Shown here piece after piece: positions 4,596 through 18,266 of a stretch of DNA of 20,000 nucleotides. The notes under the pieces were generated by a model that saw only the letters and a program-made list of their open reading frames with translations, was not told the origin of the DNA and made no database searches. The DNA is taken from the sequence record SRR20825006_1157. One strand, written 5' to 3'. Within the stretch, counting starts at the first letter, position 1; each line of letters begins with the position of its first letter. Both the position numbers and the translations under genes were made by a program.

Positions 4596-5150
4596 CTAGA
4601 TCAGTTGGATGATTCCATCAAACCGAGATCTGAAGAAGTACCGCTCTTTAAAGCTCAGGGTGGAGTTGAACACATAGCCCACCACTGGCGACATGGAATT
4701 CCAAGCTTCACCCATCACCATATAACGGTTCTTATTGGCAGCAGCCACTTCAGGCGGCATGTCAACAAACTGGCTGCCAACCGACAAAATTGAACCGCCA
4801 TTATAGGTGCGAGACCAAATCACCCAAGCTTTGCCATCACCGTCGATGCGTAAGCTGGTCACGCGCTGCACCAAATTTGCCGACTTGTAAGGTTTGATGG
4901 TGAATTCAGCCGCCTTGAAATAATCGTCCACGGTGGCGATGGCGATTTTGTCTTCCGCTCGGGCAACCAAATCAGCCACAGAACCGGCAACAACAGAAAC
5001 TTTGCGATCAACAATGATGTAGGTGCTAAGGTCAATTGTACCCAAATAAAGCGTCAGCATTACGGGCAGAATAAGCGCGAATTCAACAGCAGAAACGCCG
5101 CGCTCATTTGTGCGGAGCCTCTTTAGTTTTTGGATTAAGTTGCGCAACAT
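4596..5150 (-). CDS. TadE/TadG-family Tad pseudopilin (CpaK-like)
   Basis: Class III prepilin motif NERG|VSAVEFALILPVMLTLYLG. AGGAG RBS upstream of ATG 5150. Located in the Tad locus. Confidence 0.88.
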   Translation of the reverse strand: MLRNLIQKLKRLRTNERGVSAVEFALILPVMLTLYLGTIDLSTYIIVDRKVSVVAGSVADLVARAEDKIAIATVDDYFKAAEFTIKPYKSANLVQRVTSLRIDGDGKAWVIWSRTYNGGSILSVGSQFVDMPPEVAAANKNRYMVMGEAWNSMSPVVGYVFNSTLSFKERYFFRSRFDGIIQLI

Positions 5151-5160
5151 CAATCCACTC

Positions 5161-5709
5161 CTAAAATGGCTCGTTCATGAACACACGCGATGCGCCCATC
5201 AACATGGCACTATCGCCATCTAAATGACCGAGCTTGAACCCTAAAATGTTCAAGAAGGTTGGCCATTTATAATAAGTTTCCACCAGCACAACTTGGTTGC
5301 GGCCGCCAGGTTTAAAACTGCTTGAAATCACCCATTTGCCGTCAGCATCAACAGGGTTAGTGGTTTTAGCGTTAGCAAAGCTATCAACAACTTGAACACG
5401 GATGCGAAGCTTGTTGCAGTCAAACAAACCATACGTCTTGTCGCAAACTTTGGCCCGGAATTCTGGCATGTTATAGCCGCTGCGTTGCGCCTCTCCCGTG
5501 CGGACAACGCGCGTGGCATCACCAACAGCGGTATCTAATATCTGCGAAGCGAGCAGCACCAACCCGGTTTCAAGAATTGCGCCAATGATGGCGAAGAAGG
5601 GCAGGGCAAGTAGGCTAAACTCAACAACAGTTACCCCACGCTCATCCGAGGCGAAGCGTTTAGCCTTCAACTGCTTGTAAGCTTTTCGACATGTTCTGGC
5701 GACTGACAT
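5161..5709 (-). CDS. tadE: TadE-family Tad pseudopilin (CpaJ-like)
   Basis: DERG|VTVVEFSLLALPFFAIIGAILETG prepilin motif, R.VRTG, a Cys pair (VC...DC) and C-terminal F.NEPF typical of alphaproteobacterial TadE. ATG at 5709. Confidence 0.88.
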   Translation of the reverse strand: MSVARTCRKAYKQLKAKRFASDERGVTVVEFSLLALPFFAIIGAILETGLVLLASQILDTAVGDATRVVRTGEAQRSGYNMPEFRAKVCDKTYGLFDCNKLRIRVQVVDSFANAKTTNPVDADGKWVISSSFKPGGRNQVVLVETYYKWPTFLNILGFKLGHLDGDSAMLMGASRVFMNEPF

Positions 5710-5800
5710 CACTTGACCCTTGCTCTAAGTGAAGCAAGCATAGCGCTGTAAAATTACTGAATTCTTTCGATAATTCTTTGTAAGTGAAAGTAACAATCTC

Positions 5801-6280
5801 TTAGCGTGAAGCGGCTTCCACGATAGACTTAGAACCAGCAACTTCACCAAGATAATTTGTATCGTCACCCATCATCAATGCGGGGCCACAATCTGGCGTG
5901 CATGAAACAGTGTTGCGTTCTTCACCATTATAAACCAGCACCAAATTATCTTCTTGCGACACCACTTCAACCTTCAAATCGGCGATTGGATTGCCCACAG
6001 CATCTAGCGCGATCAAATTGGTGTGCCCAAATGTTTTGCCTGTTAAAACAATGGTTTCAGGGTCTTGGATGGTTGCATCCGCAATGCCTGGATTGCCGAT
6101 CACGATGGTTGAGGCTGCAGAAGGCAACCGCAAAATGCGCGCCATATTAACCTGCACATCGACGCTACCTTTTGGGTCGGCGGCGAAGCCCGCGCCAGTT
6201 GATGAAACCAACAGCCCTGCAACAACGGCTCCCGCGGCGGTCCAGGAACGGAGCACTTTATTGAGACGTATGCCAAGCAT
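5801..6280 (-). CDS. Pilus assembly protein with a secretin N-terminal-like (T2SS-T3SS_pil_N) domain, CpaI-like (159 aa)
   Basis: Signal peptide ending ...GAGFA. ILRLPSAASTIVIGNPGIADATI and LTGKTFGHTNLIALDAVG resemble the CpaC N-terminal domain in this window (IIDLPVSAKEVIVSEPRIANA...GDTNIIFLD). C-terminal SCTPDC. Confidence 0.85.
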   Translation of the reverse strand: MLGIRLNKVLRSWTAAGAVVAGLLVSSTGAGFAADPKGSVDVQVNMARILRLPSAASTIVIGNPGIADATIQDPETIVLTGKTFGHTNLIALDAVGNPIADLKVEVVSQEDNLVLVYNGEERNTVSCTPDCGPALMMGDDTNYLGEVAGSKSIVEAASR

Positions 6281-6675: not shown

Positions 6676-6846
6676 ATGAAATTGGTAAAACGTTTTTTGG
6701 CTGATGAGTCAGGCGCGACCGCAATTGAGTATGGCTTGATTGCCGCACTTATCGCTGTGGCCATCATCAGTGCTGCAGGCCTTTTGGGTACAAAACTTGA
6801 TGATTTGTTCTCAGGTATCGCAGGCAAGTTGGTAGCACCTGCATAA
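6676..6846 (+). CDS. pilA: Flp family major pilin, 56 aa (not in the ORF track)
   Basis: Translates as MKLVKRFLADESG|ATAIEYGLIAALIAVAIISAAGLLGTKLDDLFSGIAGKLVAPA*, with the Flp motif G|ATAIEYGL. AAGGAG RBS at 6663-6668; directly upstream of cpaA. Confidence 0.96.
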   Translation: MKLVKRFLADESGATAIEYGLIAALIAVAIISAAGLLGTKLDDLFSGIAGKLVAPA

Positions 6847-6973: not shown

Positions 6974-7486
6974 ATGACCCCAATGAATGCGATCGTTCTT
7001 GCCATTTTTCCCATCATGATGGCTTTTTGTGCAGCTTATGATCTTCTCACCATGCGCATACCAAATTGGCTTTCGGCTGTTTTGATTGCGGGTTTTCTTG
7101 TTGCTGCATTGCTGGCTGGCTTTTCTTGGGAAACTATCGGCATGCACTTCGTCGCCTTTTTAATTGCACTTGTGGTCTGCTTTATTCTGTTCATCCCTGG
7201 CTGGATTGGCGGCGGCGATGCAAAATTCGCGGCCAGCACTGTGTTGTGGATGGGCATGAACCATGCCTTATCTTACTTCTTTTATGCCGCGATAGCGGGC
7301 GGCGTGTTCACATTGTTGATCTTAGTTTTCCGAAAATTTGTGAACGCAACACAATTGCCCAAATGGGATTGGCTGGTAAAATTGCATGACCCGAAAGTGG
7401 GCGTACCTTATGGCGTGGCTTTGGCCATCGCCGCTCTATTGGTCTTCCCAAGCACCAATATTTTCTCGGCGCTTGCGCTAAGCTAA
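6974..7486 (+). CDS. cpaA: Prepilin peptidase, A24 family (CpaA/TadV), 170 aa
   Basis: Multiple hydrophobic segments. Catalytic Asp motifs AYDLLTMRIPN and IGGGDAKF; C-terminal GVPYGVALA. Confidence 0.93.
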   Translation: MTPMNAIVLAIFPIMMAFCAAYDLLTMRIPNWLSAVLIAGFLVAALLAGFSWETIGMHFVAFLIALVVCFILFIPGWIGGGDAKFAASTVLWMGMNHALSYFFYAAIAGGVFTLLILVFRKFVNATQLPKWDWLVKLHDPKVGVPYGVALAIAALLVFPSTNIFSALALS

Positions 7487-7567: not shown

Positions 7568-7627
7568 ACCCCGGAATATCTGTGCGTATTGGGTGCAGAA
7601 GCATTGAGTTTAACCGGGGAAATAGAA

Positions 7628-8563
7628 ATGAAGCCGGCGCGTTTGATTCTCGTTTTAGTTGCTTTGATAGCAGGTGGCTTGGCAGCTTTTTTTGCCTTGA
7701 ATTCAGGCGGGAGCTCAGATCCTTCGCCACAAGTTGCTGAGGTCGAGTCCGTTCAAAAGGTCAAAGTTTTGATCGCCAGCCGCACCATTGGCATTGGCGA
7801 GCGGTTGGACCCAACAACAGTGATGTGGCAAGATTGGCCAGAAGAGGCCATTCGCCCAGAATTCATCACAGATGAACGCTTGCCGGACGCACCGCAGCAA
7901 ATGCAGGGCACCATTTCCCGCTTTGAAATTTTTGAGGGCGAGCCCATTCGCGAAGCGAAATTGGTGCGCACCGGACAGGGCTATTTGTCCGCAGTGATCG
8001 GCAAAGGCATGCGCGGCGTTTCAATTGAAGTGTCAGCAGAAAGCGGCGCAGGCGGCTTTATCGTGCCAAATGACCGCGTAGATGTTGTGCTCACACAACG
8101 CAACCGCACTGGCGACACGTCACAGACCATTTTGAACAATGCCCGTGTGCTGGCCATCGGCAAAAAGCTTGGCGAAGTCGGCCCAAATGGCGGCGGCGGA
8201 AATGGCGAGCAGGCCAGCCCAGAAGCATTTGAAAACAACACAATTGCGACCTTGGAATTAACGCCACGCCAAGCAGAAGCCATCATCAACGCGTCTCAAG
8301 TTGGCCAACTTTCATTGGTGTTGCGTTCAATCATTGACTTTGTAGATGGTCCGGCAACGGCAGGCACAGGCGATAATGCAAGTGTAAAACTGATCCGCGC
8401 TGGCCAGCAAACGAGCGCCTTGGCGGTTTCAGCTGAAAACCCAGCGCAAAACGAAACATCCGAAACAGAACAAAGTACCGGTGGTCCCGTATTTTCTGCG
8501 GTTCCAGCCCCGGTGGCACAACAGCCGCAACCAAATAGTGCACCAGCCGTGGTGAAGGAGTAA
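7628..8563 (+). CDS. cpaB: Flp pilus assembly protein CpaB/RcpC (311 aa)
   Basis: MKPARLILVLVALIAGGLA N-terminal anchor, SAF-like region (VLIASRTIGIGERL...WQDWP), GMRGVSIEVSAESGAGGFIVPNDRVDV, TLELTP.QAE and LSLVLRS. Start taken at ATG 7628 with a GGGGA RBS. Confidence 0.93.
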   Translation: MKPARLILVLVALIAGGLAAFFALNSGGSSDPSPQVAEVESVQKVKVLIASRTIGIGERLDPTTVMWQDWPEEAIRPEFITDERLPDAPQQMQGTISRFEIFEGEPIREAKLVRTGQGYLSAVIGKGMRGVSIEVSAESGAGGFIVPNDRVDVVLTQRNRTGDTSQTILNNARVLAIGKKLGEVGPNGGGGNGEQASPEAFENNTIATLELTPRQAEAIINASQVGQLSLVLRSIIDFVDGPATAGTGDNASVKLIRAGQQTSALAVSAENPAQNETSETEQSTGGPVFSAVPAPVAQQPQPNSAPAVVKE

Positions 8564-10005
8564 TGGTGATGTCGAAAAATTCACAAGCCATTTTGAAATT
8601 CAAGGCATCAAAAGCATTCAGCAAAATGCTAGCGAAAAGCCTTTTGCTGCTCACCATGTTGTTGGCACCTCAAATGCTTGTGCCGCAAGCAGCTATGGCC
8701 AACGCTACCATGCGGGTGTCCGCCAATCAAATTGGGCAAACTTATGCCGTGGAATTGGGTGTAAACAAATCGCTCATTATTGATCTGCCTGTGTCTGCAA
8801 AAGAAGTGATCGTGTCTGAGCCACGTATTGCGAATGCCATTGTGCGCACCCAGCGCCGCGCCATTGTGCAAGGCCGCATGGCAGGCGACACAAACATTAT
8901 CTTCTTGGATGTGAAGGGCAATCCAATCGCTGTGTTGGATGTGACCGTAGGGGCGCAATCTGACGGCGGTTTGGAAAACACATTGGCAAGATTGTTGCCA
9001 GGTTCATCCATCCAGTCCACCATGGCTGAGGATCGTGTGGTGCTTTCCGGCACAGCGCGCAGCGACTCAGATGTACAAAACGCCATCGCCATTGCCAAGC
9101 AATTCACTAACAATGAGGTTGTCTCGGTTGTTGAAGTGTCTGGCGCGCAACAAGTCATGTTGAAGGTGATCGTTGCTGAAGTGCAGCGTGAAACCATCAA
9201 ACAATTGGGCATTGATTTGAACGCCAGCCTTAATGTTGGCGGCGTCACCACCTCATTGCTCACCAGCCAGGGTCTTGGCGGTGTGTCCAACACAGTTTCG
9301 CCAAACAGCGGCAAGCTTGGGTTCTCTTTCGGCAATCTATCTGTAGATGCCACTGTAAAATCATTGGAACGTCGTGGTGCTTTGCGCACTTTGGCTGAAC
9401 CGACCTTGACGGCCTATTCTGGCAAAAGCGCAGAGTTCTTGGCCGGTGGTGAGTTCCCAATCCCGGTTGCTTTTGAAGATGGCAAAATCACTTATGAATT
9501 TAAGCAGTTTGGTGTGGAGCTGAAATTCACCCCATCAGTTCACTCAAATAACGACATCTCTATGGATGTTGATACCAAGGTGACCGAACTGAACGTTGAG
9601 GGTGGTTACACAGCTGGCCCGGTCAATATTCCGGCCACCAAAGAGCGTAGCGCTAAAACTTCTGTGAAGCTGCCGACAGGTTCCACTTTGGCAATTGCTG
9701 GCCTGATTGAAGAGAAAACACGTCAGCAATTCAACGAAGTGCCGGGCGTCAGCAAAATCCCAATTTTGGGTGCCTTGTTCCGCTCTCGCGATTTTATTCG
9801 CTCTGAAACAGAATTGCTGATCTTGGTTACGCCATATCTGACCGCGCCAAGCCATGTGAACGACTACACATTGCCAACCGACAAACTGGAATTTGCAGGC
9901 GATGCGGAAGCGGTGTTCTAGGGCCATATGGAAAAACTGTATGGAGTGGGCAATGGCCCTAAAGGTCAAAGCCTTAAAGGTGGCGTTGGATTTGTTCTGG
10001 ATTGA
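8563..10005 (+). CDS. cpaC: Tad secretin CpaC/RcpA, interrupted by an in-frame TAG at 9919-9921 (452 aa to the TAG; 480 codons if read through to TGA 10003-10005)
   Basis: TAATG coupling to cpaB. Signal peptide, pil_N domain, BON-like domain and secretin core (QVMLKVIVAEVQR, LAEPTLTAYSG..AEFLAGGEFPIP, IPILGALFRSRDF...ETELLILVTPY). After the TAG the same frame reads GHMEKLYGVGNGPKGQSLKGGVGFVLD*, resembling the usual CpaC C-terminus. Confidence 0.9.
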
Positions 10006-10038
10006 TTGCAAGCACTAAACGAGTTGGAAGTATAAATT

Positions 10039-11298
10039 ATGTCAGATGATATTCGTCAGAATGTGAACGCCACATCGGATATTCCCTCTGGTGCGCGTTT
10101 GGTGCCACATATCACCATTCAGGCCTTTTGTGAGAATGCAATCACCGCCCAATCTGTGGAAAGCGCCATCAATGATCGGCGCATGCACAAGGTTGCTCTC
10201 ACCACCCACAATGGTGGCATTGAAGCAGCGGTTGAAACGTACAAAATCAACCCGACCCCAAACTTGATCATCATTGAATCAAATTTGGCGGGCAATGATT
10301 TGCTGTCAGCACTCGATCGGTTGGCAGAAGTTTGCGACGCATCAACTCGTGTTGTTGTGATCGGCAATGTGAATGATGTTGAACTCTATCGCCGCCTCAT
10401 TCGCTATGGCGTTTCCGAATATATGGTCACACCTGTGGAAACCCCTGCTTTGGTGGACACCATCACAGATTTGTTCGCCTCTGAGGGCGCAGAACCTATT
10501 GGCCGCACCATCGCCTTTATTTCCGCAAAGGGCGGGGCAGGCTCATCCACAATTGCCCACAACACAGCATGGTCTTTGAGCCAGCAGGTACGGCGCGACG
10601 TGCTGATCATGGATATGGATTTGCCATTTGGCACAGCGGGCCTCAATTTCAATCAGGAACCGCCACACGGCATCGCGGATGCAGTGTTCTCCAGCGATGA
10701 TGTGGACGATGTGGTGATTGAGCGCCTCATGTCCAAATGCGCCAACCACATAAATTTGTTGACCGCACCGGCCAATCTCAATCGCGATTATGATTTTCAT
10801 GAGCAGGCGTTCGAAAACATCATCGAGATTTGTCAGAAAAACATGCCGCTTGTGGTGCTGGATTTGCCACATGTGTGGAATGGCTGGGTGCGCCACACGC
10901 TTTCGACAGTGGACGAAGTTGTGGTAGTGGCCGAGCCCGATTTGGCCAACTTGCGTAATGTGAAATTCATGATGGATACGCTTAAATCTTTGCGCATGTC
11001 AGAGGCGGAACCAGTATTGTTGATGAACAAGGTTGGTGTGCCAAAACGGCCAGAATTGAGTACCTCTGAATTTGCAAACACCATTGAAGTCGACATTTTC
11101 GCTGAAGTTGCTTTTGAAGCTGGGCTTTTCGGCACGGCGGCCAACAATGGGCAAATGATCGCTGAAGTGAATGCCACGCATAAAATGAATGAGACATTCA
11201 ATTCACTTGCGCGCCGGGTAAGCGGCAGAGACGCTTCAACCCACCAAGAGGCAAACGGCCTTTTGCCGGGCATTTTGAAAAAATTAAAGCTGGGATAA
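10039..11298 (+). CDS. cpaE: Pilus assembly/localisation protein CpaE/TadZ (419 aa)
   Basis: N-terminal receiver-like domain (TPNLIIIES, VVVIGNVNDVELYR) plus a ParA/MinD-like domain with a degenerate Walker A (KGGAGSSTIAHN), DMDLPFGTAGLNF and FGTAANNGQMI. Confidence 0.93.
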   Translation: MSDDIRQNVNATSDIPSGARLVPHITIQAFCENAITAQSVESAINDRRMHKVALTTHNGGIEAAVETYKINPTPNLIIIESNLAGNDLLSALDRLAEVCDASTRVVVIGNVNDVELYRRLIRYGVSEYMVTPVETPALVDTITDLFASEGAEPIGRTIAFISAKGGAGSSTIAHNTAWSLSQQVRRDVLIMDMDLPFGTAGLNFNQEPPHGIADAVFSSDDVDDVVIERLMSKCANHINLLTAPANLNRDYDFHEQAFENIIEICQKNMPLVVLDLPHVWNGWVRHTLSTVDEVVVVAEPDLANLRNVKFMMDTLKSLRMSEAEPVLLMNKVGVPKRPELSTSEFANTIEVDIFAEVAFEAGLFGTAANNGQMIAEVNATHKMNETFNSLARRVSGRDASTHQEANGLLPGILKKLKLG

Positions 11299-11328: not shown

Positions 11329-12846
11329 ATGTTTGGGAAACGCACAAGTTTTGGCGGAAATACAAATCAGCAACAGGCAAAGCCACAGGCTCAGCCAAAG
11401 CCTGCTCCTGCGCCAGCCTCCAAGCCGATGGCGGAAAAGCCAAAAGCGCCGTCGCAGGCTGCCGGCAAACCAAACCTGAAGCTGAACACGCCTAAAATTG
11501 GCAAGGAAGAAGTGGTCGATGTCGATAAGCCGGCAAAAGACCGGGGTGTCGATTCCGAATATTATAAAACCAAATCCTCCGTCTTCAACGCACTGATTGA
11601 CTCGATCGACTTGAGCCAATTGGCGACGATGGAGCAAGATTCCGCACGCGAAGAAATTCGCGACATTGTGTCGGAAATCATCACGTTGAAATCCATCGTG
11701 ATGTCTATTTCTGAGCAGGAAGATCTGCTGGAAGACATCTGTAACGATGTGTTGGGTTATGGTCCGCTTGAGCCGCTTTTGGCGCGTGATGATATCGCGG
11801 ATATCATGGTCAATGGCGCGGGCCGCACCTATATCGAGGTGGACGGCAAGGTGCGCCTCACCAATGTGCGCTTCCGTGATAATTCTCACTTGATGAATGT
11901 GTGCCAACGCATTGTGAGCCAAGTTGGCCGTCGTGTTGATGAATCAAGCCCGATATGTGACGCCCGTTTGCCTGATGGTTCTCGTGTGAACGTTATCGCG
12001 CCACCACTGGCTATTGATGGCGCATCGCTCACCATTCGTAAGTTTAAAAAAGACAAGCTGACCCTCGACCAGTTGGTGAAGTTTGGCTCAATCTCGCCAG
12101 AAGGTGCTCGCGTGCTGCAAGTGCTTGGCCGTGTGCGTGCCAACATTTTGATTTCTGGCGGTACGGGTTCGGGTAAAACCACTTTGCTCAACTGTATGAC
12201 GGGCTTTATCGAGCCAGACGAGCGGATCATCACCTGCGAAGATAGTGCGGAACTTCAGTTGCAACAGCCACACGTGGTGCGGTTGGAAACGCGTCCCCCC
12301 AACCTTGAAGGGGAAGGGGAGATCACCATGAGGGATTTGGTGAAAAACTGTTTGCGGATGCGTCCTGAGCGGATCATCGTGGGTGAGGTGCGTGGCCCTG
12401 AAGCATTTGACTTGCTGCAGGCCATGAACACAGGTCACGATGGCTCAATGGGCACTTTGCACGCCAACTCGCCGCGTGAAGCCCTCAGCCGTTTGGAATC
12501 TATGATCACTATGGGCGGTTATTCGCTGCCGTCGCGCACCATTCGCGAAATGATCGTGTCGTCAGTTGATGTGGTGGTGCAAGCCGCCCGTTTGCGCGAC
12601 GGTTCGCGCCGCATCACTCACGTGTCTGAAGTGTTGGGCATGGAAGGTGACGTGATCGTAACGCAGGACGTGTTCCTCTATGACATTATCGGCGAAGATG
12701 CGAACAGCAACCTGATTGGTCGTCACCGCTCAACAGGTATCACTAAGCCGAAATTTGCTGAACGTGCGCGTTATTACAATGAAGAGCTGAATCTGGTTGA
12801 AGCGCTTGAAGCCGCTGCGGTCAGCGATGATGAAATGAGAGGCTAG
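11329..12846 (+). CDS. cpaF: Tad pilus motor ATPase CpaF/TadA (505 aa)
   Basis: [20 protein letters not shown], Walker [16 protein letters not shown] Asp box, [15 protein letters not shown] Walker B, and His box [16 protein letters not shown]. Confidence 0.97.
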
Positions 12847-12849
12847 CCT

Positions 12850-13842
12850 ATGTCACCGCTTCTTTTATTTTTGCTAACTGTGGTTGCCGTTGGGGCGTTG
12901 GGCTTTGCGCTCGTGCCGGGCATTGCTGGCGGCGGACGTGCTGGCAAGCGCATGAAGGCGCTCAAGCAATCTGATGGCCGCGTAAATGGGCGTCGCCAAA
13001 GCCGGGCTGATGTCGATGGCCGCAAAAGCCGCGACAAGCGCCGCAAGTCTTTGCAAGAAGTGCTTGATGAGCAAAATGAAGCGAATAAGAAACGCAAAAA
13101 ACGCTCGCTGAAAAAGCGTCTTATCCAAGCGGGTATGAAGGGTAATGTTGCCGCGTTTTATCGGAATTCAGCCATTCTTGGCGTCGCCATCTTCATCTTC
13201 ACCTGGTTTACGGGCGTGCCGCTTATGTTTGCCTTGGTGTTTGGCGCAGGTGGCTTTTATGTTTTGCCCCGTTGGTATGTGGCCCGCCGCACCAAAAAGT
13301 TCCGTTCGCAATTTTTGGATGAGTTTCCAAACGCCATTGAAGCCATTGTGCGCGGTGTGAAAGCCGGTATGCCGATCAACGATTCCATGAAAGTGGTGGC
13401 ATCTGAAGCCAAAGAGCCAGTGCGCACAGAGTTTTTGCGCGTTGTTGAGCAGCAATCTGTCGGTAAAAATATCGGCGAAGCCATCCTGATTATGTTTGAT
13501 CGGTTGCCCATCCCTGAAGTGAACTTCTTTGTGGTGGTGATCACAGTGCAACAGCAATCAGGTGGTAACTTGTCTGAAGCATTGGGCAACTTGTCCACTG
13601 TATTGCGGAACCGCAAAAAGATGAAAGCCAAGGTGAAAGCCATGAGCTCTGAAGCCAAGGCGTCTGCAGGCATCATTGGCGCCTTGCCATTTGTGGTGGC
13701 AGGCCTTGTGTCTTTGGTTAGCCCCACCTATTTGGGCCCACTCTTTTCAACACCTATCGGCAACATCTGGCTGGGTGTGGCTGGCCTGATGATGGGCATG
13801 GGCATTTTTGTGATGAACCGCATGGTTCAATTCGAATATTAA
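12850..13842 (+). CDS. tadB: Tad inner-membrane platform protein TadB (CpaG), T2SSF domain (330 aa)
   Basis: FPNAIEAIVRGVKAGMP, QQQSGGNLSEALGNLS.VLR.R and AMSSEAKASA.IIGALP, with transmembrane segments. Follows cpaF. Confidence 0.93.
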   Translation: MSPLLLFLLTVVAVGALGFALVPGIAGGGRAGKRMKALKQSDGRVNGRRQSRADVDGRKSRDKRRKSLQEVLDEQNEANKKRKKRSLKKRLIQAGMKGNVAAFYRNSAILGVAIFIFTWFTGVPLMFALVFGAGGFYVLPRWYVARRTKKFRSQFLDEFPNAIEAIVRGVKAGMPINDSMKVVASEAKEPVRTEFLRVVEQQSVGKNIGEAILIMFDRLPIPEVNFFVVVITVQQQSGGNLSEALGNLSTVLRNRKKMKAKVKAMSSEAKASAGIIGALPFVVAGLVSLVSPTYLGPLFSTPIGNIWLGVAGLMMGMGIFVMNRMVQFEY

Positions 13843-13863: not shown

Positions 13864-14847
13864 ATGGAAAGCTTGGTCGAAACACTTACAGATCGTCAGT
13901 TCTTGGTAGCTGTGCTTGCTGCCATTTCAGCGGCCGCGATTGTGTTCACCTTTGGCGCCCAGTTCGCTGATGGCAAGGATATGAAAAGCCGTATCCGTAA
14001 GGTTGCTAGCGAACGCGAGCGCTTGCGGACTGATGAGCTTGCGCGCTTGCGGGGTGAAGACAAAAAAGCGGGCACCAATGCGCGCCGTAAAGATTTGATC
14101 CAAAAGGTCGTTGATAAGTTTTCGCTGAAAAAGGCTTTCGCTGATGAGCAGACCGGGCTGAAATTGGCGCAAGCGGGCTATCGTGGCCCCAATGCGGTGA
14201 TGACCTATGTGTTCTTGCGCTTTGTCATTCCTTTGGGCGTGTTCTTGTTTGCCCTGTTTTACATCAAGTTCATCTTCATGCCTGAAGGCATGTTGTTCTT
14301 GCAGATCGTATACGCTTTTGGCGCGGGTATTTTGTCGTCATATCTACCAGTGATTTTGCTCACCAACCAGATTAAGAAGCGACAAGATTCCATCCGCCGC
14401 GCTTGGTCAGATTGTTTGGATCTGATGTTGCTCTGCGTGGAAAGCGGCATGTCGATTGAAGCGGCATTTCAAAAAGTGTCCAATGAAATTGTCAGCCAAA
14501 GCCCGGAGTTGGGCGAGGAAATGACCCTCACCACCGCCGAGCTGAACTTCTTGGAAAGCCGCGCAAAGGCTTATGAGAATATGGCGAAACGGATTAATTT
14601 GGACGAAGTAAAGTCGGTGATGACCGCGCTGATCCAGTCTGAACGTTATGGTACATCCGTGGGCACCTCGCTGCGTGTGATGGCGGAGGAGGGCCGGAAC
14701 ATGCGCATGATGGAAGCGGAGAAAAAGGCTGCTTCATTGCCGCCGAAGCTTACCGTGCCGCTTATTCTGTTTTTCTTGCCAGTTCTGTTTATCGTGATCA
14801 TGTCACCTGCGATGATCACCGTTTTCTCAACACCTGGCCCCGCGTAA
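13864..14847 (+). CDS. tadC: Tad inner-membrane platform protein TadC (CpaH), T2SSF domain (327 aa)
   Basis: LAQAGYR, DCLDLMLLCVESGMSIE.AF, LIQSERYGTSVG.SLRV and AEKKAASLPPKLTVPLILFFLP. Confidence 0.93.
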   Translation: MESLVETLTDRQFLVAVLAAISAAAIVFTFGAQFADGKDMKSRIRKVASERERLRTDELARLRGEDKKAGTNARRKDLIQKVVDKFSLKKAFADEQTGLKLAQAGYRGPNAVMTYVFLRFVIPLGVFLFALFYIKFIFMPEGMLFLQIVYAFGAGILSSYLPVILLTNQIKKRQDSIRRAWSDCLDLMLLCVESGMSIEAAFQKVSNEIVSQSPELGEEMTLTTAELNFLESRAKAYENMAKRINLDEVKSVMTALIQSERYGTSVGTSLRVMAEEGRNMRMMEAEKKAASLPPKLTVPLILFFLPVLFIVIMSPAMITVFSTPGPA

Positions 14848-14934: not shown

Positions 14935-15723
14935 CTAGTTGGAGCTGCCTTTAATGCGGTCCCATTTGTTCTGCTGGGTCAGCAATGCGCGGATATAGGC
15001 CATATTGGCTTCAACATCTTCCGGCGGTAGTTCTCTGGCATAAATGCTACGTGCCTCATCAAACCGGCCCTGCAGCCCAATCACAAGGGCAAGGTTTAAC
15101 CGCACCTTGCGTGAGGCTTTCGGGAAGGAGATAGCACGGCGAAGCGCTGCCTCTGCCTGATCCAACTGGTTGGACATGGCGAAAGACAAACCAAGATTGG
15201 CATAGAGTGATGGCTCATTCGGCGCAATCACCAGCGCTTGATTGTAAAGCGTACGGGCTTCCGCATTGCGGCCCATCTGATCGAAAATCGCGCCTTTAAC
15301 GCTCAAGGCGTTCCAATTGGGGCGTTCTGGCCGAATGGTCACATCAAGCACATTCAACGCGCGATCAAATCGTCCATCTGCAGCCAGCGCCTTTGCGTAG
15401 GCGAGGGCCACGTCAAAATCGTTTTTATATTGCAGGCGCGCTTTTTCCAAAACGGAGACCGCTTGACCAGTTTGGCCAACGGCGCGCAAAGCAGCCGCAA
15501 AATAAATTGCAGATTGTTTGTTGGGGCTCTTTTGATATTTCGCCCCCAAATCTTGCACGGCAGCGTGTTTGGCCGCATTGGACATGCCAGAAAAATCTGG
15601 CGTCGCGGTGCCACCGCCGCCAGCACCGCGGGGTGAAGCACAAGCATTCAAGGCAATGGCGGCTACACCAGCAAGCGCCAATACTCTTAGTTTTTGCATT
15701 ATGCTCTTTTGCCGATCCACCAT
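14935..15723 (-). CDS. tadD: TPR lipoprotein TadD (putative secretin pilotin), 262 aa
   Basis: Lipobox LNA|C after a hydrophobic signal. TPR repeats (GAIFDQMGRNAEAR..Y.QAL, YANLGLSFA, VRLNLALVIGLQGRFDEA). Start moved to ATG 15723 (GAGG RBS). Convergent with tadC. Confidence 0.88.
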   Translation of the reverse strand: MVDRQKSIMQKLRVLALAGVAAIALNACASPRGAGGGGTATPDFSGMSNAAKHAAVQDLGAKYQKSPNKQSAIYFAAALRAVGQTGQAVSVLEKARLQYKNDFDVALAYAKALAADGRFDRALNVLDVTIRPERPNWNALSVKGAIFDQMGRNAEARTLYNQALVIAPNEPSLYANLGLSFAMSNQLDQAEAALRRAISFPKASRKVRLNLALVIGLQGRFDEARSIYARELPPEDVEANMAYIRALLTQQNKWDRIKGSSN

Positions 15724-17260: not shown

Positions 17261-18205
17261 TTAATAGCCTTGAGCGGGGTCAACCACATGATCCAAGTGG
17301 CCATCCCGCTCATACTGGGCAATCTGCTTTGCCACCAAATTCACGCCCCCTTCAAATGAAGAAATCGCTGCAATATGTGGCGTGATGTAACAATTGTCCA
17401 AATCCCAGAGCGGGCTATCATTTGGCAAGGGCTCAGTTTTAAACACATCAAGGCTTGCTGCGCCCAAAGTGCCATCCTGAAGGCAGGCAGCCACCTCTTC
17501 TTCATTCTGATGCCCACCGCGTGCGGCATTGATGATCACCGGACCATGCGGCAGCACAGAACGGCGCAGCTTTTCAAAAGTCGCACGACACAAAATGTCC
17601 TGCGTATCTGGCGTTAAGGGCAGCAAATTCACCAATATGTCGGTGTTGGCCAAAAAAGTGTCAAACTCGTTGGCGCCTGCATAAGTCGTCACATTCTCAA
17701 TTTGCTTTTTGCTGCGGCTCCAGCCGTTCACCTGATAGCCGAGTAAGGCCAGTTTGTTCACGGCATCGGTGCCCAGCTGGCCAAGGCCCATCACCCCAAC
17801 ATGAATGTCGGTCGCTGGCGCGGGGTAATATTGGGTCCAATAATGTTTGCGCTGCTCAAATCGATAATGGGTCAGCTCGCGGTGGTGCATGCTCACATTG
17901 GCCACCACATAATCACTCATGCATTGCGTCAGCGTTTCGTCCACAAACCGTGTGATCGGCACACCTTTTGGCAAATGGGGATGCTTCAATATTGGGTCAA
18001 CGCCCGCGCCGAGCGAGAAAATCACCTCAAGATTTTCCAACCCATCAAACACATCATCGCGGGGTTTCCACACATATAGATATTTGATCTCTGTCGGATC
18101 AAACATATCGGCGGAGGTCACAACCTTTTGGTCTGGCATCTTCGCCCGAAACGCATCTGCCCACTCATTCTCATCAATGTTGCCCAAATGCACTAAAAGC
18201 GTCAT
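17261..18205 (-). CDS. ghrA: D-2-hydroxyacid dehydrogenase, glyoxylate/hydroxypyruvate reductase A-like (314 aa)
   Basis: IFSLGAGVD, Rossmann GVMGLGQLG, GWSRSKK, NLLPLTPDT, IINAARG, LDVFKTEPLP and ITPHIAA. Start at ATG 18205 with a GGAGG RBS. Confidence 0.88.
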   Translation of the reverse strand: MTLLVHLGNIDENEWADAFRAKMPDQKVVTSADMFDPTEIKYLYVWKPRDDVFDGLENLEVIFSLGAGVDPILKHPHLPKGVPITRFVDETLTQCMSDYVVANVSMHHRELTHYRFEQRKHYWTQYYPAPATDIHVGVMGLGQLGTDAVNKLALLGYQVNGWSRSKKQIENVTTYAGANEFDTFLANTDILVNLLPLTPDTQDILCRATFEKLRRSVLPHGPVIINAARGGHQNEEEVAACLQDGTLGAASLDVFKTEPLPNDSPLWDLDNCYITPHIAAISSFEGGVNLVAKQIAQYERDGHLDHVVDPAQGY

Positions 18206-18230
18206 GCCACGCCTCCAAATCTGTTGTGAA

Positions 18231-18266
18231 ATAAAAAAAGACCGCACCTTTATGGCACGGTCTTTT
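18231..18266 (-). terminator. Rho-independent terminator downstream of the cytochrome c gene
   Basis: On the minus strand: GACCGTGCC-ATAAA-GGTGCGGTC (two G.U pairs) followed by TTTTTTTAT. Confidence 0.8.

Follow-up and report, generated by a model that had tools for sequence, protein, structure and literature searches.

The question raised by this locus is what an in-frame amber codon does near the 3′ end of the secretin gene of an otherwise complete Tad/Flp pilus cluster. The cluster lies in a 20,000-nucleotide stretch of sequence record SRR20825006_1157, here called the window. The secretin gene, cpaC, reads GAT GCG GAA GCG GTG TTC TAG GGC CAT ATG, and the encoded protein ends ...DAEAVF at a TAG in positions 9919-9921. 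Beyond the TAG the frame remains open for 27 more codons, encoding GHMEKLYGVGNGPKGQSLKGGVGFVLD, to a TGA at 10003-10005, and the ATG of cpaE at 10039 follows 33 bases downstream. These positions, together with that of an ATG at 9928, had all been given correctly in a preliminary description of the window, in which a strain-specific nonsense allele, programmed readthrough, a separate tail peptide made by re-initiation, and a sequencing or assembly error were offered as explanations. The reading judged probable here is that the TAG is genuine and of recent origin, and that it abolishes or severely impairs the function of the CpaC secretin.

The Tad/Flp locus and its host

Using Pfam and NCBIfam models, a complete Tad/Flp pilus locus was recognized in the window, with the gene order flp-cpaA-cpaB-cpaC-cpaE-cpaF-tadB-tadC. 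On the plus strand these are the Flp pilin gene (6676-6846; Pfam Flp_Fap, E 3.2e-18), the prepilin peptidase gene cpaA/tadV (6974-7486; Pfam Peptidase_A24, E 3.2e-16), cpaB/rcpC (7589-8563; Pfam RcpC, E 2.7e-29; NCBIfam pilus_cpaB, E 6.6e-62), the Tad pilus secretin gene cpaC/rcpA as a truncated 452-codon allele (8563-9921; Pfam Secretin and T2SS-T3SS_pil_N), cpaE/tadZ (10039-11298; AAA_31, ParA-type and receiver-like Pfam matches), the ATPase gene cpaF/tadA (11329-12846; Pfam T2SSE, E 2.9e-66), and the platform protein genes tadB (12850-13842; Pfam T2SSF, E 5.7e-20) and tadC (13864-14847; Pfam T2SSF, E 1.1e-18). The stop codon of cpaB, a TAA, overlaps the ATG of cpaC by 1 base. No cpaD is present between cpaC and cpaE, the intervening gap being the 33 bases noted above. 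On the minus strand, upstream of flp, lie two genes for TadE-like minor pilins (4596-5153 and 5161-5712; Pfam TadE, E 3e-09 and 2e-08) and one for a CpaI-like small protein with a secretin-type N domain only (5801-6280; Pfam T2SS-T3SS_pil_N, E 8.2e-22). A CpaI protein is described for the Caulobacter Cpa system in the available text of PMC13170226.

An intact gene for a TadD-like TPR lipoprotein, convergent with tadC, occupies 14935-15723 on the minus strand. Its product matches many TPR Pfam families and was modelled as an all-helical TPR solenoid (pLDDT 83.4). The N-terminus is MVDRQKSIMQKLRVLALAGVAAIALNAC, in which a lipobox was read by eye; the putative signal peptide, ...LALAGVAAIALNAC, likewise read by eye, ends in LNAC, with a Cys19 that at least 90% of 16 orthologues share. 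Of 26 related genomes, 23 encode the protein, and the copy in the nearest of the genomes compared shares 99.6% identity with it. Its structural matches to the type IV pilus pilotins PilW (2vq2, Z 16.4) and PilF (2ho1, Z 15.2; 2fi7, Z 15.1) were tied with many unrelated TPR proteins. TadD of Pseudomonas aeruginosa (the TadD chain of 8odn) was not among the 60 PDB sequence matches listed, nor among the Foldseek and VIA-align rows listed, and generic TPR proteins were returned instead. Very low sequence similarity of TadD to its relatives is described in the available part of PMC10499894. The sequence is that of a putative TadD-type pilotin.

An alignment of the window to the nearest genome compared, 19,925 columns long, shows 96.4% identity, 719 mismatches and 3 single-base gaps; in an exact-pattern scan the contig of this genome was identified as Maritalea mobilis CGMCC 1.7002. 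This degree of identity places the window in a Maritalea strain at approximately the species boundary with M. mobilis. One gap precedes the first gene start (341), one lies in the tadC-tadD interval (14905), and the third is at the very 5′ edge of a dehydrogenase open reading frame (18233). Since there are merely three over 19.9 kb and none lies inside a gene body, the assembly of the window is not error-ridden. Maritalea belongs to the marine Alphaproteobacteria; its placement in the family Devosiaceae is supported by the names of the database homologues of CpaC.

Codon 453 and the secretin tail in relatives

The homologous stretch was sought in 41 related genomes, 21 of which matched, and 20 loci were compared. 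All 20 carry a leucine codon at the position of the TAG (TTG in 6, TTA in 1, CTT in 2, CTG in 4 and CTC in 7), and it is TTG in the 4 closest genomes. M. mobilis has TTC TTG GGC where the window has TTC TAG GGC, and a single T-to-A change at 9920 therefore accounts for the premature stop at codon 453. The proposal in the preliminary description that the TAG occupies a leucine position one base away from TTG is thus borne out, and its suggestion of a strain-specific nonsense allele stands, the TAG being unique to the window and conserved in no relative among these loci.

The orphaned 27-codon tail with its ancestral TGA (9922-10005, plus strand) encodes the end of the S-domain, including the tip GFVLD. 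Its peptide is identical in amino acids to the C-terminus of the intact M. mobilis orthologue, and the C-terminus FLGxMEKxYGVG...G.GF[VISA]L[DEN] is present in 20 of 20 related loci, so that the open frame past the TAG is more than a chance occurrence. One of these loci (L018), in a genome that is 66% complete, was omitted from the alignment of the tails (A1) because its frame is broken at a point upstream of the tail; the tail itself is intact. Invariant in the 19 aligned tails are L453 (L33 of A1), G34, Y40, G41, G53, G56, F57 and L59.

More distant homologues carry the tail as well. Database homologues with E <= 1e-20 numbered 7,752, and the C-termini of the best 120 of them were compared. 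Every one of the 120 ends in GFxx[DN], 104 of them in GFVLD; 119, all but a single protein with GFLWD at its end, fit G[FYW]x[LIVM][DEN]. The terminal pattern F-L-G-x(4)-Y-G...G-F-[IV]-L-D, previously put forward for this family, agrees with these ends. Of the best 150 matches to representatives at 50% identity, 125 could be assessed, their alignments reaching at least query residue 440. None of the 125 ends within 10 residues of the TAG position, and 124 continue for at least 15 residues past it (median 29, minimum 13). A terminal G[FYH]xxx was found in 116 of the 150, with Glu or Asp as the final residue in 84 of the 116. Homologues with ...AVF as their normal end were therefore not seen in these sets.

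The exact truncated CpaC, whether of 452 aa or of 450 aa from the second Met, was not found in a collection of 15 billion proteins, and all 5 members of the protein cluster nearest to it are 478 aa long. A 41-base pattern in which 9920 could be either T or A, and which had to match exactly elsewhere, gave 0 matches in metagenome contigs. Among genome contigs the same pattern matched M. mobilis CGMCC 1.7002 only, with the T allele; within this scope the TAG turned up in no further sequence.

The state of the sequence around the stop bears on its age. Within the orphaned 27 codons there are 4 differences from M. mobilis, all 4 synonymous and none nonsynonymous. The other tad genes are full length, and their change relative to M. 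mobilis is mostly synonymous, with synonymous and nonsynonymous differing codons numbering 47 and 1 in cpaE, 41 and 1 in cpaF, 18 and 1 in tadB, 16 and 0 in tadC, and 15 and 1 in tadD. This is in keeping with the earlier impression that the other pilus genes look intact. The stop aside, the window CpaC has 5 residues unseen in nine close homologues (V65L, A169S, A246S, T325S and I396V), all of them conservative. The synonymous-only tail and the intact tad genes argue that the locus was under purifying selection for nearly all of its divergence and that the stop is young. From the sequence, the nonsense event looks recent and lineage-specific. A spare secretin is unlikely, because each of the 4 nearest genomes has a single Secretin-domain gene.

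Truncation of the secretin and its expected effect

The window cpaC belongs to the Tad/Flp secretin family (CpaC/RcpA) and is an allele without the C-terminal tip. The Secretin domain (PF00263, E 2.3e-38) spans residues 268-426 and lies wholly upstream of the stop; PF13629 (T2SS-T3SS_pil_N) matches with E 1.9e-15, and a BON match is weak, its 23 bits falling below the cut-off of 27. Among solved structures, the M. mobilis orthologue, which is 97% identical, matches RcpA best (8odn_A, E 9.3e-39) and not PilQ (5.2e-14), GspD (1.4e-13) or InvG. What is missing from the window open reading frame is the C-terminal S-domain with its conserved tip, which is still encoded in frame downstream. In a model of the intact orthologue, built from a 62-sequence alignment with a mean pLDDT of 78, a helix is predicted at residues 447-460 (pLDDT about 70), beyond which the chain is of low confidence as far as residue 480. 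The stop at codon 453 cuts this predicted helix and removes everything beyond it, the rest of the helix being encoded by the orphaned codons.

In P. aeruginosa, the available text of PMC10499894 places the RcpA S-domain at residues 381-416 and calls it random coil. The end of RcpA (its last four or five residues, 412-416) sits in a groove of TadD, a pilotin made of TPR repeats, where a conserved Arg lies opposite the final Asp, and TadD binding, co-localisation and secretin assembly are abolished in the truncated forms RcpA 1-399 and 1-412 (PMC10499894). The link between the RcpA tail and TadD, which the preliminary description had mentioned, is thereby confirmed for P. aeruginosa, as far as that text goes. 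The phmmer alignment of the M. mobilis orthologue to 8odn_A ends at residue 432, which corresponds to RcpA residue 375, and by simple offset from this point the stop falls near RcpA residue 396. A search of the PDB with a profile of the tail gave 0 chains at E up to 10. Because the tails are unalignable by sequence, the Maritalea and RcpA tips are equated by their position and by the acidic residue with which both end.

Taken together, the following course of events is proposed. A T-to-A transversion at 9920 turned leucine codon 453 (TTG) into an amber codon in the Tad/Flp secretin gene, apparently the only one, and translation ends inside the conserved S-domain helix. The signal peptide, the N domains and the whole secretin barrel are kept in the product, which is shorter by 28 residues and so lacks the invariant GFVLD. 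If P. aeruginosa RcpA is taken as the model, this tip may be the handle for the groove of the intact TadD-like protein (14935-15723), and a secretin without it would be poorly delivered to, or assembled in, the outer membrane, or would never reach that state. An otherwise intact pilus machine would then produce few or no surface pili. The mutation, its uniqueness, the conservation of the lost segment and the intact state of the other genes are seen in the sequences; loss of TadD binding, of secretin assembly and of piliation is inferred from them, and a pilus-less strain would be the most likely outcome.

The alternatives differ in whether the base, the stop or its consequence is doubted. An error of sequencing or assembly, or a minority variant raised to consensus in an organism that is truly TTG, is improbable. 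It would account for a single-base difference confined to one sample. In a separate Logan assembly of run X1, the position is also A, on a contig of 67,590 bases with a word depth of 16.6; over 9600-10250 (651 bases) this contig shows 0 differing letters, and there is no alternative contig. The A is thus in the consensus of the reads, and the scarcity of gaps against M. mobilis likewise speaks against a faulty assembly. All of the sampled words (100%) occur in X1, probably the very run from which the window derives, so that its agreement is not independent; base calls at 9920 are those of contig consensus, from which rare variants are dropped, and the population may be a mixed one. At this contig level the error explanation is weakened. 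Contigs of X2, X5 and X6, runs of three other studies that contain close relatives, have T at 9920 (depths 21.5, 60.3 and 10.1). Programmed or suppressor-mediated readthrough, giving a regulated mix of short and full-length secretin, is very improbable, even though the frame past the TAG stays open and its peptide is unaltered. Near-cognate readthrough at a low level occurs for any stop codon. A stop at codon 453 was seen in 0 of 20 related loci, 0 of 3 related runs and 0 of the 120 best homologues, and by the test that the preliminary description itself proposed, programmed readthrough is refuted. TAG is an ordinary stop here, because 7 of the 19 other open reading frames examined in the window close with it, cpaF and tadD among them; no tRNA gene lies in the window, and the base after the TAG is a G, which is not known as a leaky context. 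The faintest chance of all attaches to a restart at the ATG in 9928-9930, by which a separate 25-residue tail peptide (MEKLYGV...GFVLD; 9928-10005, plus strand) would complement the truncated secretin. That ATG stands 6 bases past the TAG, and the mutation itself created an AGGG 4 bases upstream of it, an arrangement found in none of the 20 related loci. Lacking a signal sequence, such a peptide would presumably stay in the cytoplasm, on the wrong side of the inner membrane from its periplasmic and outer-membrane partners, and this reading frame is judged irrelevant to function. Neither readthrough nor the separate peptide, both raised in the preliminary description, is retained.

If the mutation is real, the truncated secretin might still work, with the tail or TadD helpful rather than essential in this lineage and the strain piliated, perhaps to a reduced degree. 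This is unlikely, yet deserves more weight than the readings above. The N domains and the Secretin domain at 268-426 are wholly upstream of the stop and all other tad genes are intact, and CpaO, the TadD orthologue of Caulobacter crescentus, is dispensable for pili according to the available text of PMC13170226, in which the lipoprotein CpaD surrounds the secretin. The belt lipoprotein of Caulobacter comes from cpaD (PMC13170226), however, and the locus in the window has none between cpaC and cpaE; its arrangement is thereby nearer to that of Pseudomonas, in which truncations of the same region abolish assembly (PMC10499894), and dependence on TadD is presumed for Maritalea. Retention of the tail in every homologue examined argues for strong selection on it, against a tail that is merely helpful. 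There is also a slight chance that natural selection has favoured the allele as an off-switch or dimmer: without the pilotin handle on its only secretin the cell would shed its surface pilus, for instance in escape from pilus-specific phage or in favour of a free-living state, with the machine still one base from reversion. Rare near-cognate readthrough may then provide a few full-length subunits, which would seed mixed, partly functional rings. For a disabling allele, phage escape or adaptation to culture is a plausible selective cause.

Some further readings were rejected. Reassignment of TAG was set aside, TAG being a common terminator in the window, as counted above. An artefact at a methylation motif was considered for position 9920; no GANTC, the motif in question, was seen at the site by eye. 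Polarity on cpaE was also rejected, as just 84 extra untranslated bases would precede its start.

Comparison with known Tad systems

A literature search for cpaC premature-stop alleles affecting pili found no relevant paper. In Caulobacter crescentus (CpaC, CpaD and CpaO), the core Cpa/Tad genes are the same as those in the window, including a CpaI-like protein and TadE-like minor pilins, as far as the available text of PMC13170226 describes them. The systems differ in that CpaD is placed around the secretin and the TadD orthologue is dispensable in Caulobacter (PMC13170226), whereas Maritalea has no gene between cpaC and cpaE and has tadD beside tadC.

In Yersinia pestis, a fixed rcpA frameshift is described for the tad locus (Thomson et al. 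2006, in the available text of PMC1698947). Both cases are natural inactivations of a Tad secretin gene in one lineage with close relatives intact. The Yersinia case combines the frameshift with loss of the pilin gene and represents old, fixed decay of the whole locus (PMC1698947), whereas in Maritalea one nonsense codon close to the 3′ end is the sole lesion and the other genes are intact, which indicates a much younger event. The window allele is thus a further natural example of tad secretin decay, distinct in that only the presumed pilotin-binding end is hit and the machine is otherwise intact. It is otherwise an ordinary strain-specific nonsense mutation and not a recoding signal. In annotation, cpaC is best flagged as a truncated allele or a pseudogene, with no presumption that the strain makes Tad pili.

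The closest parallel is with the engineered P. aeruginosa proteins RcpA 1-399 and 1-412 (Tassinari et al. 2023, in the available text of PMC10499894), which belong to the same family and from which the S-domain after the barrel is likewise removed. The Maritalea cut falls at about the same position as that of RcpA 1-399, and a gene for a TPR lipoprotein adjoins the locus. The tails themselves do not align in sequence, and a helix is predicted at 447-460 in Maritalea where RcpA is described as random coil (PMC10499894). The Maritalea case also differs in being a natural allele in a marine alphaproteobacterium, with an effect that is predicted. It may be regarded as a natural counterpart, arisen in a remote marine lineage, of the engineered truncations from which the binding of the Tad secretin to its pilotin was worked out. 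Should the strain prove to be without pili and an intact allele restore them, the mechanism of the C-terminal handle would be valid well beyond Pseudomonas, despite the situation in Caulobacter.

Both ends of cpaC

The sequence TAATG at 8561-8565 places the cpaB stop codon TAA and the ATG of cpaC, the Tad pilus secretin gene (8563-9921, plus strand), in a one-base overlap, and this arrangement suggests translational coupling of the two genes. In database homologues the start is set at a Met two codons downstream of the ATG used in the window, and the annotated length is 478 aa.

At the other end of the gene, the T-to-A change at 9920 that makes the premature TAG also makes an AGGG, which lies 4 bases 5' of the ATG at 9928 (9920-9930). 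Placed before the orphaned tail, i.e. the 27 codons following the TAG, this AGGG is a weak ribosome-binding look-alike. Between 9897 and 9966 the window differs identically from all three related runs (X2, X5, and X6) at 6 positions in 70 bases, comprised of five synonymous third positions and the nonsense change. Difference density here is locally above the window average of 3.6%.

Length differences and a split orthologue

Over 19.9 kb only three length differences separate the window from M. mobilis, at 341, 14905, and 18233, each of one base. The last lies no more than 15 bases from the listed GTG start of a 2-hydroxyacid dehydrogenase ORF (17261-18247, minus strand), the real start of which may be shifted by it. 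Among related loci, the cpaC orthologue of L018 (G013:C3:2053770-2056994), from a genome that is 66% complete, has its C-terminal tail intact; its match is split into three pieces in different frames, possibly by a frameshift or an assembly problem.

Fold matches and gene order compared with Caulobacter

For the predicted model of the TadD-like protein (m4d37c65723d0; 14935-15723, minus strand), the top Foldseek matches are TPR domains gripping the C-terminal peptides of their partners. They are PEX5, bound to PTS1, and Trip8b, bound to the tail of HCN2; E is ~1e-5 and TM only 0.5, level with many other TPR proteins.

The tadD gene follows tadC and is convergent with it. The gap between the ancestral stop of cpaC and the start of cpaE is only 33 bases long (10006-10038) and holds no cpaD-like lipoprotein gene, whereas Caulobacter carries one at this position. 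A 159-aa protein (5801-6280, minus strand; PF13629, E 8.2e-22), followed by two successive TadE-like genes (5161-5712 and 4596-5153), consists of a secretin-type N domain alone and resembles the CpaI bridge protein of Caulobacter (PMC13170226).
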